From: Dehalococcoidia bacterium
Lineage (GTDB): Bacteria; Chloroflexota; Dehalococcoidia; Lucifugimonadales; JAAXIE01
Assembly (NCBI GenBank): GCA_965197805.1
Contig: OZ240229.1
Coordinates: 2,596,445 to 2,660,444, forward strand
Reading direction: 5' to 3'
Length of the DNA stretch: 64,000 nt
Shown here: one piece after another, positions 37,218-46,951 of the stretch
Layout: each line of letters begins with the position of its first letter
How positions within the stretch are numbered: the first letter of the stretch is position 1
The notes under the pieces: model-generated
Told to the model about the DNA's origin: nothing
The model's database searches: none
What the model saw: the letters and a program-made list of their open reading frames with translations, nothing else
Position numbers and translations under genes: made by a program

Positions 37218-37595
37218 CTAAAAGGGTTTGACGTGCTCCTCAAGCCACTCGCGCAACTGGTGAAAACGGAACGAGTTGGTCTCGAATAGGCGCATGAAGA
37301 AATCGTATGCCGCGCGGCTGTCGCAGTCGATATAGCTTCCATTGAGGCGCAGGAAGGCGTCGGTAGCACCCAAGGCTGTCCGCTTGTTGCCATCGACGAA
37401 GGGGTGGTTCATGGCCAAACTCTCCAACAGAGCGGCCGCTTCATCAACGAGTCCCTCGTAGTAGCCGAGTTGTGGGCGCATGATAGCCGACTCTAGCGCA
37501 CCCACGTCGCGAAGCCCCAAAGCACCTCCGAAATGGGAGAGCAGTTCGTCGTGCATGGTAACCACTTCCAAGAGTGTGGGGAACTCGTGGGTCAC
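37218..37595 (-). CDS. Doc/Fic toxin
   Basis: HPFVDGNKRTA Fic motif. Confidence 0.92.
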   Translation of the reverse strand: MTHEFPTLLEVVTMHDELLSHFGGALGLRDVGALESAIMRPQLGYYEGLVDEAAALLESLAMNHPFVDGNKRTALGATDAFLRLNGSYIDCDSRAAYDFFMRLFETNSFRFHQLREWLEEHVKPF

Positions 37596-37819
37596 TGGGC
37601 CAACAACTCATACAGAAGACGGTTCCTCTCAACGCTCGCGCGAAAGTGGGCCATCACCTCCGGGCGGACCTGCTGTTGCGCTTGATTCTCCAAGTAGCTG
37701 CGCATGGCGTCTTCCAGCACTGCCTGGAACTGGCGTCCCTGCTTCCTGGCGAGTTCGTGCATCCCCATCAATACGTCAGGGGGTGCTTGGCTGGAAAACT
37801 TCTTTCGCGTAGTCGTCAT
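37592..37819 (-). CDS. Putative antitoxin (RHH-like)
   Basis: 75-aa ORF whose stop overlaps the Doc start. Confidence 0.75.
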   Translation of the reverse strand: MTTTRKKFSSQAPPDVLMGMHELARKQGRQFQAVLEDAMRSYLENQAQQQVRPEVMAHFRASVERNRLLYELLAQ

Positions 37820-39016: not shown

Positions 39017-40078
39017 CTACTGCACTCGCTCGGTTACGGCGCGAGTCGCCGACCAGAGGGGCATCCACGAGGAGTGGCGCCCTGCGCCGCCAGCCACAAC
39101 AATCAGGATGTCGTCGGGACGGGCAACCATTGGCACCAAGTAGTCGTCGGCGGCGTCTTCAATCCACTCAGGCCAAGTGCGCTCACCGTAGTGAGAGCGT
39201 CCCACTAGGTGTCTTTTCGGAATACGACAGTTCTGGAACAGGTACTCTTTGATGTCCTGCTTCGAGTAGCCGGAAGCGGCGATTTCCTGGGCATGCTCGG
39301 GGCACAGCACCAGAAGTACCTGACAATCGCGCCCTTGGATATAGTAGCTCACCACACCCAGCACTCTCATGCTGTCGGCAACCGTCTGCAGCGCCTCTTC
39401 ACCCGTCTCCACTGTCGTCTCGGTTATCTGGTGGAAGGCGCGGACTGCTGCCAGAGTCACCGTGCTGTCGTCGGAGGCGTAGCCGCGGTCCATGTGGAAG
39501 GGTTGCCAAGGACTCTGGGACTCGTTTTCGGCGGTGCAGAACGTGTACTTGGCGGGCTGGGCTTGGGTAGACTTCTCCATCTCGCCGGGGTGGGCCCCAC
39601 CGAGGTTGCGCACCACAAGGGCCAGCGAGCGCCCAAGGACGGCGTTGGCCTGATAGCCGGAGCCGAAGCAGGCTGTGTCGCCATTGAACCCAATGCGGCC
39701 GGCCACTGGCCCGTTGACGATGATCAGGGGCGCTGCCCCGGCAGTGGTGGCTGCCACACCACCGACGTTGTAGTCGGCGGTCAAGGCGGCGCGAACAGCA
39801 GCCAGCACCGCTGGCATGTGTTGAGGCATGGCGCCGGCCATGACCGCATTAGCGGCCACTTTCTCGACGGTGACAATGCCATCGCCCGGAGGCATCACGC
39901 CCAGAACCTCTTCGGCTGGCAGACCCACGGCATCCACCATTGCTGCCACCCGCTCTTCTGTGGGCGGCACAATGGGGAGTCCATCGCTCCATCCCCGCTC
40001 CAGGAACAGGCGGTTCACTTCGTCGAAAGCGGGGGCGACCTGTAAGCGGGTGGCCCTCACGCTAGACTCGCTGGTCAT
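39017..40078 (-). CDS. Uncharacterised protein usually partnered with UGSC-family proteins
   Basis: WSDGLPIVPPT, ANAVMAG, CPEHA, VAGG. Its start overlaps the UGSC stop (ATGA). Confidence 0.75.
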   Translation of the reverse strand: MTSESSVRATRLQVAPAFDEVNRLFLERGWSDGLPIVPPTEERVAAMVDAVGLPAEEVLGVMPPGDGIVTVEKVAANAVMAGAMPQHMPAVLAAVRAALTADYNVGGVAATTAGAAPLIIVNGPVAGRIGFNGDTACFGSGYQANAVLGRSLALVVRNLGGAHPGEMEKSTQAQPAKYTFCTAENESQSPWQPFHMDRGYASDDSTVTLAAVRAFHQITETTVETGEEALQTVADSMRVLGVVSYYIQGRDCQVLLVLCPEHAQEIAASGYSKQDIKEYLFQNCRIPKRHLVGRSHYGERTWPEWIEDAADDYLVPMVARPDDILIVVAGGAGRHSSWMPLWSATRAVTERVQ

Positions 40079-40614
40079 GCTGCACCTCGTGACAGGCCAG
40101 CCAGTATCTCCGGCAGGGCGGATTCGGCCGCTTCTTGTAGCTGGACTGCCGACTTGCTGGCCATGGGATGTTGCACCAATATCAGACGGTGCTGGGGCAT
40201 TGCCTTGGCTTGTGTGCGCAGCTTGGCCGCCCGCTCAAAGGCTGTGGTGACTAGGGTGACGGCGGGCCTGCCCCGCTTCTCTACTTCTACCGCGTCGTGG
40301 AGACCCCACGCTGTACAGGACCCTCAATCGGCGACCCCGTGCACCACAGCGTCACACTGGGCCAGCAGGTCGTCCATCTTGGACGGGTCCATGGGGATGC
40401 TGGGGTTGGCCTTGCGCACGATGACGGTGTCGACACCCTCCTCACCCAGCAGCACCTTCAGGTTGTCCATGAAACGGTCCGAGTTGTGTCGCGAGTTATC
40501 AATCAGTCCCACGGTGGCCCCTTGCAGTTGGGCCAAGCGCGGGTGTGGTCGTTCTTCGGGTATTGCGCCCTCGGCGGCAGGGTGGAGGATGGTCAGCATG
40601 TCATCGGGTGGCAA
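40075..40614 (-). CDS. UGSC-family selenoprotein (179 aa, UGA read as Sec at 40324-40326)
   Basis: The frame continues past the TGA as G-S-C-T-A-W-G-L-H-D to a stop at 40075. AGGAGG RBS precedes TTG 40614. A hairpin lies just 3' of the UGA. Confidence 0.85.
40296..40310 (-). promoter_or_regulatory. Candidate bacterial SECIS hairpin
   Basis: mRNA CGUGG-GGUCU-CCACG, loop starting with G, about 18 nt after the UGA. Confidence 0.55.
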
Positions 40615-41317
40615 TGGCGCCTCCTGTAGTTGTGTTAAGAGTCTTATCGTAAAGGGACTCCGGATGCCCTTCGATCATGTGAAGATCGAGTTCGCGCCCC
40701 AAGTGGTAGGTGAGACCATAGGCGACGGTAGCAATGTCCACTGGGCGGCCCAGAACTCGCTCCATGGAAGTAACGCCAGCGTCGGTGACCCCACAGGGGA
40801 TGATGTGCTGGAAGTAAGAGAGGTCAGGGGTGACATTAAGGGCGAGGCCATGATAGGCGACGCCATTGGTAATTTTCACTCCGATGGCCCCGATTTTCTC
40901 GTTCTCCACCCACACGCCAGTCCGTCCGTCTACCAGTCCCCCTTGGATATCGAACTGGCCAAGCGTGGCCAGCATCGCTCTTTCCAGAGCTCTAACGTAA
41001 CGCAGCGGCCCACCCCATGAGCGCAGGTTGACCACGGGATAGGCCACCAGTTGCCCAGGCCCATGATAGGTCACTTGTCCACCACGATCGGCCTCGTGAA
41101 GGGCGATGCCCCGTGCTTCCAGTTGCGAGTCATCCAGCAGGACGTGATCACGGTCGCCACGGCGACCCAGGGTGTAGACGTGGGGATGTTGCAGCAGGAG
41201 CAGTGTATTGGAGGATTGGCCTGCTTTGATGGCTTCCACCAGTTCAAGTTGAATGTCCCAAGCATCGGAGTATTCGACGATGCCAAATGAGATGACGTGG
41301 CAGGTTGGCTGGGCCAA
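40601..41317 (-). CDS. lipB: Octanoyltransferase LipB
   Basis: HPHVYTLGRR, DRGGQVTYHGPGQLVAYP, KIGAIG, HGLALN, IPCG. Start approximate (TTG). Confidence 0.92.
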   Translation of the reverse strand: MAQPTCHVISFGIVEYSDAWDIQLELVEAIKAGQSSNTLLLLQHPHVYTLGRRGDRDHVLLDDSQLEARGIALHEADRGGQVTYHGPGQLVAYPVVNLRSWGGPLRYVRALERAMLATLGQFDIQGGLVDGRTGVWVENEKIGAIGVKITNGVAYHGLALNVTPDLSYFQHIIPCGVTDAGVTSMERVLGRPVDIATVAYGLTYHLGRELDLHMIEGHPESLYDKTLNTTTGGAIATR

Positions 41318-41337
41318 TGGTCGATCACACGGCCGGT

Positions 41338-42699
41338 TCAGTAGATCGGCGTGTCGGGCCCCATGGCCTCGAGACGCTGCTTGACCGCCTGTAGGAAGGC
41401 GCTGGACTCGGAGCCGTCGGCAACGCGGTGGTCGAAAGAGAGGCACACGTTCATCATGGAGCGAATCGCAATAGCGTCGTTCATCACGACGGGCCGTTTC
41501 TGCACAGCCTCAATGGTTAGAATGCCCGCTTGGGGGTGGTTGATGATGGGCTGGGAAACGACGGAACCCAATGCGCCGGTGTTGTTCAGGGTGAAGGTAC
41601 CACCCTGAACGTCTTCCAAGGACAGCCTGCCTTGGCGGGCCCGCTCCGTAAGCTCATGAGCCGCTCGGGCTAGGCCGGCAATGCTGTGCCCGTCGGCGTT
41701 GTGGATGACCGGCACCACGAGCCCTCCCGGGGCAGCCACAGCGATGCCGATGTTGGTGCGCTTCTTTAGGATAATCTTGTCGCCACCCCAAGACGAGTTG
41801 AGGAGGGGGTTCTCTTTGAGCGCCTCTACCAAGGCTTTGATGGCAAAGGGGAGGTAGGTGAGGGCCACGCCTTCTCGTTGTCGGAAGTCATCTTTGATAC
41901 GGTCGCGGTAGGATGCCAAGAAAGTTAGGTCGACCTCAATCATGCTCCAAGCATGGGGTATCTCCGAGGCGCTGCGTGACATGTGTTCCGCGATGATGCG
42001 TCGCACTGCGGTGAGGGGCACGGCCTCCTCATCAGCCCCCGCAGTCATGGGTATGGGTGTGGGGGCCGGTGACGCTGGGGCAGCAGGGGCTGAAATCGGA
42101 GGTGCAGAGGCCGTGGCCACGGCCGCGCCACGGGTTTGTACAGCTTTCATTACGTCTTCGCGAGTCACCCTCCCGCCCATACCGCTGCCACTTAGCGTGT
42201 CTGGGTCGATGTTCTGCTCTCGCGCCAACCGACGCACCGCAGGGGAATATCGCCGGCGCGAGGCTGGTTCGTCCCGCTCGGTATCGGGTTGTGGTGCAGC
42301 GTCGGGAAGAGCAGTCTCCGGCCCAGCCATGATTCCACCAGTGGGACCCACGGGCCGGAGGTCTTTCGACAGGTAACCGATGGTGCTGGGGGGCGTCGGG
42401 GCGGAAGCTTGCACCGGCGGAGTGGCCGCGTGAGAGGATTGGACTACTGAGCCGTTCGTATCCGCTGTTTCCATCTCAGCGATGGGGGCGCCCATGGGAA
42501 CGGTGTCGCCCTCTTGGGCCAACAGAGAAGTAAGGACGCCATCATAAGGGGAGGGTACTTCCATGGTTACCTTGTCGGTGACCACTTCCACCAAGGGGTC
42601 GAAACGCCTCAGTTTGTCGCCCGGTTGGGCCAGCCACTTGCCGATAACACCTTCAACGACCGACTCGCCAACATGGGGCAGTTCGATCACTACAGCCAT
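41338..42699 (-). CDS. 2-oxoacid dehydrogenase E2 dihydrolipoamide acyltransferase
   Basis: Lipoyl TDKVTMEV, PSBD SPAVRRLA...GSGMGGRVT, catalytic DHRVADG. Confidence 0.95.
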   Translation of the reverse strand: MAVVIELPHVGESVVEGVIGKWLAQPGDKLRRFDPLVEVVTDKVTMEVPSPYDGVLTSLLAQEGDTVPMGAPIAEMETADTNGSVVQSSHAATPPVQASAPTPPSTIGYLSKDLRPVGPTGGIMAGPETALPDAAPQPDTERDEPASRRRYSPAVRRLAREQNIDPDTLSGSGMGGRVTREDVMKAVQTRGAAVATASAPPISAPAAPASPAPTPIPMTAGADEEAVPLTAVRRIIAEHMSRSASEIPHAWSMIEVDLTFLASYRDRIKDDFRQREGVALTYLPFAIKALVEALKENPLLNSSWGGDKIILKKRTNIGIAVAAPGGLVVPVIHNADGHSIAGLARAAHELTERARQGRLSLEDVQGGTFTLNNTGALGSVVSQPIINHPQAGILTIEAVQKRPVVMNDAIAIRSMMNVCLSFDHRVADGSESSAFLQAVKQRLEAMGPDTPIY

Positions 42700-42721
42700 G
42701 GTACCGCCCCTCTCTCCTCGC

Positions 42722-43705
42722 TCAGTAAGCAGCCAGCCGACGCAGAGCTTGGGCAACTTTGTCGGTGCTAGGCATATAGACCTCTTCCAAGGAGGAGGCA
42801 AAGGGCATGGCAGGCACGTCGGGGCCGCAGAGGCGGGTCACTGGGCCATCCAAGTGCTCGAAGGCTTGATCCGCTATGAGGGCAGCCACTTCCGCACCGA
42901 CCCCACCCGTCACGTTGTCCTCATGCACGATGAGGGCCTTGCCCGTCTTTTTCACCGAGTCCAATATCGTGTCGCGGTCCAAGGGGCTGAGGGTGCGCAG
43001 GTCCACAACTTCCACGCTTATGCCCTCTGCTGCGAGGAACTCCGCTGCCTCAAGGCAGTAATGAAGCACCAGCCCATAGGAGATAACGGTTATGTCGCCT
43101 CCGGCATGTTTGACGTCGGCGACGCCTATGGGTAGGCAGTACTCCCCGTCGGGTACCTCGCCGCGGACCAGACGGTAGGTCTTCTTGTGCTCCAAGAAAA
43201 CTACCGGGTTGTCGTCGCGGATGGCCGACTTGAGCAGACCCTTGGCATCGAAAGGAGTAGCCGGGGCAACGACCTTCAGACCGGGCGTATGAAAGAAGTA
43301 GGACTCCACATTCTGAGAGTGGTACAGACCTCCGCGTATGCCTCCGCCATAGGGCACACGCACCACCATCGGGGCCGAGATGGCACCATTGGTGCCGTAG
43401 CAGGCACGGGAAGCCTCGCCTATTAGCTGGTTGGCAGTGGGCCAGATGAAGTCGGCGAATTCCACTTCGGCGATGGGGCGCAGCCCACGGAAAGAGGCGC
43501 CTAGGGCGATACCCACTATGGAGGCTTCAGCCAAGGGTGTGTCGATGACCCGACCGGGGCCGAACTCGTCGAGAAAACCCTGCGTAGCTAGGAACACACC
43601 GCCACGCTGCCCGATGTCCTCTCCCATGATCAGCACCTTCGAGTCGCGCACGAGCTCTTCGTGCATCGCCTCCCGTACCGCCTCGATAACGCTCTTCACA
43701 GCCAT
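42722..43705 (-). CDS. 2-oxoacid dehydrogenase E1 beta (branched-chain type likely)
   Basis: GEDIG, DTPLAE, GGLYHSQ, VVDLRTL. Confidence 0.93.
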   Translation of the reverse strand: MAVKSVIEAVREAMHEELVRDSKVLIMGEDIGQRGGVFLATQGFLDEFGPGRVIDTPLAEASIVGIALGASFRGLRPIAEVEFADFIWPTANQLIGEASRACYGTNGAISAPMVVRVPYGGGIRGGLYHSQNVESYFFHTPGLKVVAPATPFDAKGLLKSAIRDDNPVVFLEHKKTYRLVRGEVPDGEYCLPIGVADVKHAGGDITVISYGLVLHYCLEAAEFLAAEGISVEVVDLRTLSPLDRDTILDSVKKTGKALIVHEDNVTGGVGAEVAALIADQAFEHLDGPVTRLCGPDVPAMPFASSLEEVYMPSTDKVAQALRRLAAY

Positions 43706-43713
43706 GATATATC

Positions 43714-44730
43714 TCAGCCTGCGTACAGGTGGTGGTAGAAGGTTGAGGGATCGGGGAGGGGAGCGTCCTCGGCCAAGGCAGTAGCCCGGTCCACTTGGAC
43801 TCGGGCCTCAGAGCGCATCATTTCGTCATCCGACTCCGTCAGATGGCCGGTCTCCAGCAGGTAGTTGCGGAGTGCGTCGATGGGGTCGCGGGTGCGGGCG
43901 GCCTCCAGTTCTTCCGTAGAGCGGTAGCGCCGGTCATCGTCATCGGTTGTATGCGGCATGAGGCGCTCAACCTGCATCTCCAACAGGACGGGCCCCTCGC
44001 TCCGGGCATAGGCTATAGCATCGCAGGTCGCCCGATAGCACTCGAACAAGTCAAGGCCATCCACCTCATGGCCGGGGAAGCCATAGCTCTGCGCCCTCTG
44101 TGTCACCCCAGGAACAGACATCTGTAACCTGAGGGGGACCGATATGGCGTACCGATTGTTTTCGCAGATGAATATCACGGGCAGGCGGTGCACTGCGGCG
44201 AAATTCATGGCCTCATGGCACTCGCCTTGGCTGGAGCCTCCATCGCCCAAGTAGGCCAGCACAACAGTGTCCTCACCCAAAGCCCTGCACCCCAGCGCAT
44301 AGCCGACCGCTTGGGTAAGGTTAGCTGCCACCACGTTGGAGGTCTGAATCACACGGTTATGGGGCGAGGCTCCCTGTAGGGGAAACTGGCGTCCGCCACT
44401 ATAGGGGTCTCCTGCTTTCCCCATGAAGGAGAGCATGGCCTCGTCGACGGATATTCCTGCAGTCAGCTTGATGGCCAAGTCGCGGTAGTAGGGGAAGAGG
44501 AAGAAATCGCCGTCGTCCTGAGCAGCGAGAAGACTACCCAGTTGGGCCGCCTCGTGGCCTTGGCATGAAGCAGCGATGGGCACCTTGCCCTGCCGATTCA
44601 ACGCCCAGATACGCTCGTCGAATGTACGTACCAGTACCATCTGCGAGTAGACCTGCAACGCCTTGGGGTCGCTAAGGACATGAGAGCCGTGGAGGCCTTC
44701 GTTGCCGTGGGCCTTTTCCGCCTGGGCCAT
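43714..44730 (-). CDS. 2-oxoacid dehydrogenase E1 alpha (branched-chain type likely)
   Basis: SCQGHEA, PYYRD, TPP motif GDGGSSQG...ENNRYAIS. Confidence 0.93.
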   Translation of the reverse strand: MAQAEKAHGNEGLHGSHVLSDPKALQVYSQMVLVRTFDERIWALNRQGKVPIAASCQGHEAAQLGSLLAAQDDGDFFLFPYYRDLAIKLTAGISVDEAMLSFMGKAGDPYSGGRQFPLQGASPHNRVIQTSNVVAANLTQAVGYALGCRALGEDTVVLAYLGDGGSSQGECHEAMNFAAVHRLPVIFICENNRYAISVPLRLQMSVPGVTQRAQSYGFPGHEVDGLDLFECYRATCDAIAYARSEGPVLLEMQVERLMPHTTDDDDRRYRSTEELEAARTRDPIDALRNYLLETGHLTESDDEMMRSEARVQVDRATALAEDAPLPDPSTFYHHLYAG

Positions 44731-44758: not shown

Positions 44759-46951
44759 CTAGGAAGGTTCTTGACGTTGCGAGCTGGCTACCAGCAGGTC
44801 GCCCCGGTCACCCCAGCGCTTAAAGAAGCGTTTGAAGTTCTTGAAGCTAAGCTCGTTCCGTTGGGCCTCGTCCAAGGCAGCCCACACCCGGTGCTCATGT
44901 CGCACTATGGGCAGGTCGTCCGCAGCAAAGATGCGGTGTCCCAAGTTCTTCATCTGGAAACTGAAATCGAGGTCGAGGTTGCGATAGAAGCGGAAGCACT
45001 CGCGCATCAGGCCCACCTCATTGACAAGGGAACGCCGGAAGCCTTGGCAATAGGCCTGCATGGCGTCGGACTCGCCCGATGTGACCTCGTCGTGGAAGTG
45101 ATGTATGTCGTCGGTGCATACACCCCACGGCCCGACCATCGAGATTCGCTCATCATCCAACCAGCGGTCGACGGGCGTCAGGATGTCGCCGACTACCTCG
45201 ACTGAGGGATCCAGGAACAGTACGGTGCGCCCACGACACTGCATCAGGCCAATGTTCTTGGCTGCGCCCTCACCCAGCACATGGTCGGCGTGGACTACGT
45301 TGACCCGTGAATCGCTGGCCCGGAGTTCTTCCAGCCATTCCGAGGTACCGTCAGTGGAGCCGTTGTCGACCACGACAAGCTCGGCGTTGTGGCCCTCAGC
45401 CCACTTCAGGGCGCTGCGGGTGACCCGCTGCACATCGTCCTTATAGTCAGACACCACCGAGACCATGGAAAAGTCCAGCGTCGGAGGCTCGCCCAAGTAG
45501 GAGAGCACCTCCTTGGGCGAGGAAATCGTGGCGAACTGTCCCTGCATCCGCTCCAGCGGGGTCTTGGGGCGCACTGATGCGCCGTCGGCTTGGTCTTGGA
45601 CCACGTAGCCGTGGGATGAGATGTGCTCGCGCAGGGCATCCGCCTCGTCATAGGAATGGCTGCTGCGGAAGCTGCTCCGCCGTTCTACATGTGCGCCCAC
45701 CTGAGAAGGGACCTCGTGAGTGGCGGCGGCCTGGTCCAAGCCCAGCCCCAGAAGCTCATCGAACTCCCGCAGCAGCGCAGCCTTGGCCGCGTCGGGCAGC
45801 GGGGACTGGGACATGTTCCACACGCTCGCCAAGGCACTGGGAAGGTCGAGGTCGTTCTCCACCTTCTCCCAGAATTTCGTCCGCCACTCCTCGGCCTCGG
45901 TTGGCATCTCGGCAAGGTCAGAGGCTTGGCGCCAGACAGCCATGCGAGCTTGAAGACCGGTCAAGGCCCGCTGAGCAGCCCTCAGCGTGGAGAAGGTGAA
46001 GTTCATCCGATTGCGGTAGCGCACCGTGAGGCAGAGGTAGCGGAAGGACAATGGGTCGAAGTCCCGCGCCACCAGATCATCGAGAATGAACACGTTGCCC
46101 GAGGACTTGGCCATCTTGACGCCGTCCGCGAGCAGATGCTGGCCGTGGACCCAGTAGCGCACGTAGGGGACCCCAAAAGCAGCCTCGCTCTGGGCTATCT
46201 CGTCCTCGTGATGAGGGAAGATGTTGTCCACGCCGCCGGTATGGATATCGAGCTGCTGCCCCATGTACTTGGTAGACATGGCCGAGCATTCGATGTGCCA
46301 GCCAGGGAAACCTTCTCCCCAAGGGCTGTCCCACTTCATCTCACGTCCGGGCTCCGCCAGCTTCCAGAGCGTGAAATCACGCGGGTCGCGCTTCAGCGGG
46401 TCGGCCTCACTGCGAACACCCTCCATCAACCCTGCCTGCTGATTGCCCGAAAGGGCCCCGTAGGCTTCGAATTTGGCGACATCAAAGTAGATGTTGCCAC
46501 CCACCAAGTACGCATAGCCTTTGGCCATCAACTGTTCGACCAAGGCCACCATCTCAGCCACATGCTCAGTGGCCCAAGGATAGATGTGAGCCGGAAGAAT
46601 GTTGAGCCTGGCTTCGTCGTCGTAGAAAGCTTGGGCGTAGAACTGGGCAATCTCCTGAGGAGACTTACCTTCTTCCAAGGCCGCCAGGATAACGCGGTCG
46701 CCACCCTCTTCCAGCATCTCTTGGCGCATGTGGCCCACGTCGGTTATGTTCTTGACGTGAGTAACCTCATAGCCTCGATGCATGAGAGCGCGACGTATCC
46801 AGTCGGCCATCAGATAACTTCGGAGGTTGCCTATATGGGCGTAACGGTAGACAGTAGGACCGCAGGTGTACATTTTGGCGACACCGGGCTCTAGAGTCTG
46901 CACCTCCTCCGCCCGACGCGTCATAGTGTTGTGTAAGCTAAGCACCATCAC
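44759..46951 (-). CDS. cysS: Cysteinyl-tRNA synthetase fused to a C-terminal GT2 glycosyltransferase domain
   Basis: CGPTVY, HIGN, WHIECSAM, FPHHEDE, KMAKS, anticodon helix ADALR. Then VVVDNGSTDGT, AAKNIGL, LFLD, DLDFS. Confidence 0.9.
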   Translation of the reverse strand: MMVLSLHNTMTRRAEEVQTLEPGVAKMYTCGPTVYRYAHIGNLRSYLMADWIRRALMHRGYEVTHVKNITDVGHMRQEMLEEGGDRVILAALEEGKSPQEIAQFYAQAFYDDEARLNILPAHIYPWATEHVAEMVALVEQLMAKGYAYLVGGNIYFDVAKFEAYGALSGNQQAGLMEGVRSEADPLKRDPRDFTLWKLAEPGREMKWDSPWGEGFPGWHIECSAMSTKYMGQQLDIHTGGVDNIFPHHEDEIAQSEAAFGVPYVRYWVHGQHLLADGVKMAKSSGNVFILDDLVARDFDPLSFRYLCLTVRYRNRMNFTFSTLRAAQRALTGLQARMAVWRQASDLAEMPTEAEEWRTKFWEKVENDLDLPSALASVWNMSQSPLPDAAKAALLREFDELLGLGLDQAAATHEVPSQVGAHVERRSSFRSSHSYDEADALREHISSHGYVVQDQADGASVRPKTPLERMQGQFATISSPKEVLSYLGEPPTLDFSMVSVVSDYKDDVQRVTRSALKWAEGHNAELVVVDNGSTDGTSEWLEELRASDSRVNVVHADHVLGEGAAKNIGLMQCRGRTVLFLDPSVEVVGDILTPVDRWLDDERISMVGPWGVCTDDIHHFHDEVTSGESDAMQAYCQGFRRSLVNEVGLMRECFRFYRNLDLDFSFQMKNLGHRIFAADDLPIVRHEHRVWAALDEAQRNELSFKNFKRFFKRWGDRGDLLVASSQRQEPS

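Follow-up and report, generated by a model that had tools for sequence, protein, structure and literature searches.

UGSC entered the literature in 2007 as a selenoprotein without known function (PMC1976440). A 2008 study of the Global Ocean Sampling (GOS) data placed it with the most abundant families of selenoproteins there, with 255 selenocysteine (Sec) forms and 21 cysteine (Cys) forms, and it was reported to be sometimes fused to a conserved domain called 'Unknown_1' (PMC2398784). A 2026 review still lists UGSC among the uncharacterised selenoproteins (PMC13188914), which agrees with the statement in the original prediction that the family is recognised and has no established role. Two other groups of proteins invite comparison: GrdB and PrdB (PF07355), the Sec subunits of glycine/sarcosine/betaine reductase and of D-proline reductase, of which PrdB has the same UxxC spacing as UGSC (PMC2398784, Table 2), and the flavodoxin-like proteins, such as flavodoxin, SsuE, MdaB and ArsH.

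Here we describe a UGSC gene in a stretch of 64,000 nucleotides (the window) that belongs to a Dehalococcoidia genome consisting of a single contig of 3.68 Mb. The locus shows nothing different in kind from the UGSC family as described (Zhang and Gladyshev; PF24696, NF041046): the D-U-G-S-C-T motif, the length and the domain are the same, Sec forms outnumber Cys forms, as in the GOS data, and fusion to a conserved unknown domain is already in print. What is specific to the locus within the family is that the genome, which is of the Dehalococcoidia type, contains four paralogous pairs of UGSC and a partner gene, and that the present pair is located in an operon behind E1-E2-LipB. The locus therefore adds a member and material to a known family and no new concept. 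We consider it very probable that the gene encodes one UGSC selenoprotein, in which UGA codon 97 is recoded by means of a downstream hairpin, and that this protein works as one unit with its partner, with a chemistry that would resemble that of GrdB and PrdB.

The UGSC gene and its reading frame

The gene is encoded on the minus strand (Table 1). Translation starts at TTG 40614, with ATG 40599 as an alternative start, and yields LPPDDMLTILHP...VHGVAD up to the TGA at 40323-40321; in a longer form, the segment before this TGA reads LPPDDMLTILHPAAEG...CDAVVHGVAD. After the TGA, the frame continues as GSCTAWGLHD... (GSCTAWGLHDAVEVEKRGRPAV...) for 82 further codons and ends at the TGA at 40077-40075. 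The first TGA is the sole interruption of the 179-codon frame, and its translation as Sec gives VAD-U-GSC. The terminal TGA shares three bases with the ATG of the partner gene (40078-40076) in the arrangement ATGA. Thus, the minus-strand translation bears out three claims of the original prediction, namely an in-frame TGA between VAD and GSC, about 82 codons beyond it, and a frame end that overlaps the next ATG. Both the AGGAGG sequence and the TTG start are kept in the orthologue of the closest relative (L016).

Table 1. Features of the UGSC locus, in positions of the window
Feature	Position	Strand	Remark
E1-alpha	43714-44730	-	
E1-beta	42722-43705	-	
E2	41338-42801	-	
LipB	40601-41446	-	stop overlaps the UGSC start region
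Shine-Dalgarno AGGAGG	40620..40625	-	5 nt upstream of TTG; seen in the sequence and in orthologue L016
UGSC family selenoprotein gene	40075..40614	-	179 codons plus stop; translation through TGA
Sec codon TGA	40321..40323	-	selenocysteine 97 of the U-G-S-C motif
SECIS-type hairpin CGUGG-GGUCU-CCACG	40293..40307	-	zero synonymous variation in 65 distinct sequences
353-aa partner gene	39017..40078	-	ATG overlaps the UGSC stop as ATGA

The list of open reading frames under genetic code table 11 missed the gene, because there it appears as two separate pieces, one of 96 aa (40324-40614) and one of 41 aa (40075-40200). The gene had been described as hidden, and this holds for such a plain list of reading frames; it does not hold for the family, which is curated in Pfam (PF24696) and in NCBIfam (NF041046). 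In short, 40614-40075 is a genuine Sec-containing gene of the long-known UGSC family that ordinary gene finding splits in two. A genome-wide use of TGA as a sense codon was also considered and was rejected, since the UGSC gene itself and the neighbouring genes stop at TGA. A scan for promoters and terminators gave nothing above shuffled controls.

Family membership and the Sec column

When the TGA is read as a residue, the Pfam profile of UGSC (PF24696) spans it in one stretch, with 146.7 bits against a cut-off of 25; the match extends over residues 9-175 and covers profile positions 2-171 of 172. The NCBIfam model NF041046, 'UGSC family (seleno)protein', scores 123.9 bits, which is 1.1 under its equivalog cut-off of 125. 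The closest public relative is an uncultured Dehalococcoidia MAG, the UGSC orthologue of which is 88% identical. A search against the sequences of PDB chains gave no match for UGSC or for the partner.

In an alignment of 36 members, the column that corresponds to codon 97, in the U/C-G-S-C motif, is invariant, and the 82 codons after the TGA are conserved as protein, including Cys100, D107, E112, G115 and P117. Cys100, at position +3 to Sec, is invariant in all forms seen, including those with USTC and UGAC. We also collected 80 related loci from contigs of one genome per species. The motif was visible in 79 of them, and its Sec column holds TGA in 78 cases and TGC in one (the haloarchaeon Natrialba, L078). 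In an even sample of the phylum, the family occurs in 13 of 151 genomes, and every one of the 17 matches that span the site carries exactly one TGA.

The original prediction proposed a search for Cys homologues that align across the UGA, and named homologues consistently split at this codon, together with a lack of Sec machinery, as the finding that would speak against it. Continuous Cys homologues do align across the Sec codon (P0004 and the TGC form of Natrialba), and the two halves are therefore one protein. The database also contains short homologues of 99-110 aa that end in ...VAD (for example, P0005-P0007); these are gene-calling truncations at the UGSC TGA.

A conserved hairpin downstream of the UGA

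In the mRNA, the UGA is followed by GGGUCCUGUACAG CGUGG GGUCU CCACG. The last three elements form a hairpin with a stem of 5 bp (40307-40303 paired with 40297-40293) that starts 13 nt after the UGA, and its loop, GGUCU, begins with G and starts 18 nt after the UGA. The folding energy of an 81-nt stretch is no lower than expected by chance (z-score 0.33), and a scan of 39900-40700 against Rfam detected no SECIS family, only four weak matches to eukaryotic miRNA, snoRNA and lncRNA families far below the thresholds.

Despite the z-score, the hairpin is real beyond chance, because its synonymous sites are conserved. The 65 distinct sequences compared share only 37-50% identity at the protein level. 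At the three degenerate codons from which the hairpin is built (NCG, GGU and CUC), their third positions have an entropy of 0 bits, compared with 1.0-1.9 bits at most flanking four-fold sites. Where the same stretch has its other invariant Gly, GGU is the codon used least often, in 5 of 65 sequences. Moreover, other stems with compensatory changes are found at the same place: CGUGCA-GUG-UGCACG in two paralogues (p1 and p3) and in L126 and L129, and CGGCCA-GUG-UGGCCG in L127 and L128. Variants with G-U pairs occur in L021-L023 and L130, and a subfamily of fusion proteins (see below) has a different GC-rich hairpin at this position. The bacterial SECIS (bSECIS) model of Zhang and Gladyshev from 2005 reportedly consists of a stem-loop shortly downstream of the UGA with a G in the apical loop, and the present hairpin fits this model. 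A hairpin with a G in its loop at a SECIS-compatible distance had thus been foreseen correctly, and the suggested check for a SECIS element returned a conserved element of this type.

Selenocysteine machinery and other selenoproteins of the genome

The genes selA, selB, selC and selD, which should accompany a functional Sec codon and had been proposed as a check, are all present in the genome. The products of selA (544 bits), selB (348 bits) and selD (391 bits) each score above the curated cut-off, selD has an in-frame TGA of its own, and a tRNA-SeC with anticodon TCA was located by aragorn at C1 1412572-1412666.

The same genome contains a cluster of the glycine/sarcosine/betaine reductase type (G000:C1:1977758-1985580; loci L096 and L097). 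It comprises a PrdB-like selenoprotein (LTPT-U-PLCTH), a GrdC-like gene (DUF5940 and ACP_syn_III), the fragment of GrdA that follows GrdA's own TGA (PF04723), GrdE (PF09338) and a GrdB-like selenoprotein (LTSA-U-GTSTR). Table 11 calling splits each of the three Sec genes in this cluster. Since genes for GrdA, the GrdB-like and the PrdB-like selenoproteins coexist in the genome, Sec decoding is in regular use.

The partner protein

The gene that follows UGSC encodes a protein of 353 aa, for which no Pfam or NCBIfam family was matched. It has more than 3,685 homologues, none with a functional name; the few that are named are all 'hypothetical protein'. The genome contains exactly four paralogues of the partner, each directly beside one of its four UGSC genes and nowhere else, and each of the four UGSC genes has exactly one TGA, in the same column. 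The other three pairs are located at G000:C1:309978-311651, 2091734-2093333 and 2561738-2563317, each with the in-frame TGA. Two of the four pairs have the order UGSC-partner and a SECIS-type hairpin with the loop GGUCU, and two have the order partner-UGSC and one with the loop GUG. The pairs were duplicated as units, because the ranking of the paralogues by identity is the same for both proteins.

We looked around the four pairs of the genome for a third conserved gene, but the neighbourhoods differ. The neighbours of the other pairs are a molybdenum enzyme of the xanthine dehydrogenase family with a sulfate adenylyltransferase and DnaE in one case, an SMP-30-like protein and a GMC oxidoreductase in another, and CoA-transferases with an asparaginase, a ThDP enzyme and FAH in a third. 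Because of these differences, the genomic context gives no substrate.

The partner gene is found on the same strand within 6 kb downstream of UGSC in 73 of the 80 related loci, a sample in which close relatives are over-represented. About 30 of the related loci (for example, L047, 6554-7327) have a gene for a 257-aa protein of the endonuclease/exonuclease/phosphatase family (PF03372) between UGSC and the partner, and in the SAR202/Dehalococcoidia loci with this insert the gap between the two is constant at about 800 nt.

In other Chloroflexota, the two proteins occur as single-frame fusions of about 550 residues, in which a linker joins the UGSC domain (with U-S-T-C or U-G-A-C) to the partner that follows it. 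Database proteins of 419-446 aa represent such fusions, with the gene call beginning only at the next start codon downstream of the TGA. The fusions match the 'UGSC/Unknown_1' fusion of 2008 and give independent support for a functional unit of UGSC and its partner.

Several polar residues of the partner are invariant: D32, T40, E72, K73, N77, N145, R150, E184, E186 and H335. No Cys of the partner is conserved in all members (the fusion subfamily has Thr in place of Cys181), and a cofactor motif is not recognisable.

Neighbouring genes in the window

An operon for a 2-oxoacid dehydrogenase on the minus strand (40601-44730) runs directly into the UGSC gene. The UGSC-partner pair follows E1-alpha, E1-beta, E2 and LipB and precedes an Amidohydro_2 enzyme, the genes overlapping or nearly abutting each other. 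The cluster includes no gene for E3 (dihydrolipoamide dehydrogenase). This arrangement would make dihydrolipoyl-E2 a conceivable reductant of UGSC; however, the order E1-E2-LipB-UGSC-partner-amidohydrolase is common only to the closest relative, L016, so that we take it as a weak local hint.

Upstream of the operon there is a 730-aa reading frame (44759-46951, minus strand) that, judged by eye, is an unusual fusion of an N-terminal part similar to cysteinyl-tRNA synthetase and a glycosyltransferase-like part comprising the C-terminal 250 or so residues. Elsewhere in the window there is a toxin gene of the Fic/DOC family (37218-37595, minus strand; PF02661, E = 1e-13), and a 75-aa reading frame upstream of it (37592-37819, minus strand), which overlaps it by 4 nt and has no Pfam match, probably encodes the antitoxin.

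Predicted structures

The structure of UGSC was predicted by AlphaFold2 using the 36-sequence alignment (pLDDT 89.4, pTM 0.83). The model consists of five parallel beta-alpha units. Sec97 is located between strand 89-95 and helix 98-113, that is, where strand 3 meets helix 3, and both U97 and C100 lie in the first turn of this helix. The best matches of the model in the PDB are flavodoxin, SsuE, MdaB and ArsH, which include FMN reductases, with TM scores of 0.45-0.53. Because of these matches, the predicted fold is flavodoxin-like and not a thioredoxin fold: the best 50 PDB matches listed are mostly flavodoxin-like, and no thioredoxin fold was recognised among them. In this respect the model differs from the 'Trx-like fold' suggested in print. 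The three-layer alpha/beta/alpha topology with five parallel strands is common to the model and the flavodoxin-like proteins, although TM is only 0.45-0.53 and identity 11-17%; in the model, moreover, no FMN-binding loop is evident and the putative active site is a Sec/Cys pair.

The partner was also modelled with confidence (pLDDT 91.8, pTM 0.91), and a Foldseek search of the PDB with this model gave no match above a TM score of 0.27. Class I fumarate hydratase and the cyclic amide hydrolases of the Toblerone fold (cyanuric acid hydrolase) were considered as homologues and rejected, with TM of at most 0.27 and rmsd of 11-18 Å.

Comparison with GrdB and PrdB

Around the Sec codon, the GrdB-like gene of the genome reads ...VDAVVLTSA-U-GTSTRSGAAIATELEKAGIPVAQV..., the PrdB-like gene ...VDAVILTPT-U-PLCTHTV...FEEAGLST... 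and UGSC ...CDAVVHGVAD-U-GSCTAWGLHDAVEVEKRGRPAVTL... In each case, a hydrophobic strand (DAVVxxxx-U) leads straight into Sec, which opens a helix and is followed by E-x-E-K/R-x-G-x-P, another strand and an HP-type loop. An hhalign comparison of UGSC with a profile built from seven GrdB-like proteins of the class, restricted to their C-terminal modules, gave probabilities of 82-88% (E from 3e-6 to 1e-5); the alignments cover 72-95 columns and pair Sec with Sec. The probability was 69% with a single GrdB-like sequence and only 3.5-40% with PrdB-like profiles. UGSC may also resemble these systems in its mode of work, in that GrdB and PrdB act together with a subunit that is specific for the substrate and encoded by a gene of its own; the partner would be the counterpart of that subunit.

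On the other hand, UGSC has about 180 residues and is without the region of about 350 residues that PF07355 models in GrdB and PrdB; in the GrdB-like and PrdB-like genes of the genome, this profile ends just before Sec. None of the 36 UGSC members has a HMMER match to PF07355 (GRDB) at E <= 10. The partner is unrelated to the pyruvoyl proproteins GrdE and PrdA of the GrdB and PrdB systems: comparison with the GrdE of the genome gave an hhalign probability of 0.2%, the partner has no match to PF09338, and no relation was found to the N-terminal part of GrdB. Unlike in glycine reductase, components of the GrdA and GrdC types are not associated with UGSC. The Sec half of UGSC is probably a remote relative of the Sec module of GrdB and PrdB. 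UGSC was not filed as a member of the GrdB/PrdB family, given that PF07355 does not match it and that its partner is unrelated to GrdE.

Working model and alternative explanations

The working model is taken by analogy from PrdB and GrdB, the Sec subunits of the proline and glycine reductases. SelB with Sec-tRNA(Sec) would read the UGA at codon 97 as Sec, directed by the hairpin that begins within the coding sequence 13 nt further on. The protein would end at the second UGA (codon 180), where such a hairpin is absent. Translation of UGSC would be coupled to that of the 353-residue partner, and the two proteins would form a physical complex and act as one working unit, the likely function of which is that of a two-part selenium-dependent reductase. 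In the model structure, Sec97 and Cys100 have the geometry of a redox-active selenol/thiol pair that could close to a selenenylsulfide. The partner would most likely bind and activate a small organic substrate through its invariant polar residues. Sec97 would act on the substrate as a nucleophile or reductant, Cys100 would resolve the intermediate or adduct, giving the selenenylsulfide, and an external dithiol would re-reduce the Se-S bond.

That the TGA is a true stop, and the gene a split or decayed one that yields a 96-residue fragment, is what standard gene calling shows, and the many database proteins of 99-110 aa ending in ...VAD could be read in the same way. We regard this as exceedingly improbable, since the 82 codons downstream are conserved as protein in the 36 aligned homologues, 78 of 79 loci and all four paralogues have TGA at this position, and the conserved hairpin is accompanied by a complete Sec machinery. 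A different question is whether UGSC works alone. The literature groups it with thioredoxin-like redox proteins by its UxxC motif (PMC2398784, PMC13188914), and 7 of the 80 loci have no partner within 6 kb; accordingly, UGSC might be a stand-alone 'thioredoxin-like' thiol/selenol oxidoreductase for general redox homeostasis, with a 353-aa neighbour that is unrelated or loosely linked. This appears unlikely to us in view of the overlap between the UGSC stop and the partner start, the presence of a partner paralogue beside each of the four UGSC genes of the genome, the recurrence of single-chain fusions, and the predicted fold, which is flavodoxin-like rather than that of thioredoxin.

UGSC and its partner might also cooperate in another manner, with UGSC as a carrier of selenium or sulfur, or a persulfide/perselenide relay, that feeds a biosynthetic or modifying partner enzyme, and not as part of a reductase. 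The partner, with neither a redox cofactor motif nor an invariant Cys, would suit such a role, as would the flavodoxin-like fold of UGSC and the weak fold echoes of the partner, which are hydro-lyases and hydrolases (TM at most 0.27). However, the Cys at +3 is kept even in the USTC and UGAC forms, as is usual for the resolving cysteine of a redox cycle, and the Sec half of UGSC aligns with the reductase module of GrdB, so that we consider this role quite improbable, somewhat more so than that of a stand-alone oxidoreductase.

Returning to the two-part reductase, a fuller reading can be offered tentatively, as a possibility that we would not yet call probable. UGSC and its partner might represent a widespread, unrecognised class of two-component and sometimes fused selenoenzymes that reductively cleave or reduce small organic compounds. 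Such an enzyme would join a minimal Sec module of the GrdB/PrdB-like kind to a catalytic subunit for which no structure of related fold has been solved; the pair would have been multiplied in this lineage into four substrate-specific copies, and at the present locus electrons might come from the dihydrolipoyl-E2 of the upstream operon, which is without E3.

Implications

For annotation, a single Sec-containing gene should replace the two fragments at 40324-40614 and 40075-40200, and the same repair is needed for the three other UGSC genes of the genome. In aquatic metagenomes, UGSC belongs to the most abundant families of selenoproteins, and it has been without an assigned function since 2007. 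Since this genome encodes four clean UGSC-partner pairs, probably coupled in translation, alongside a classical Grd system, constructs for co-expression and structural studies could reasonably be taken from it.
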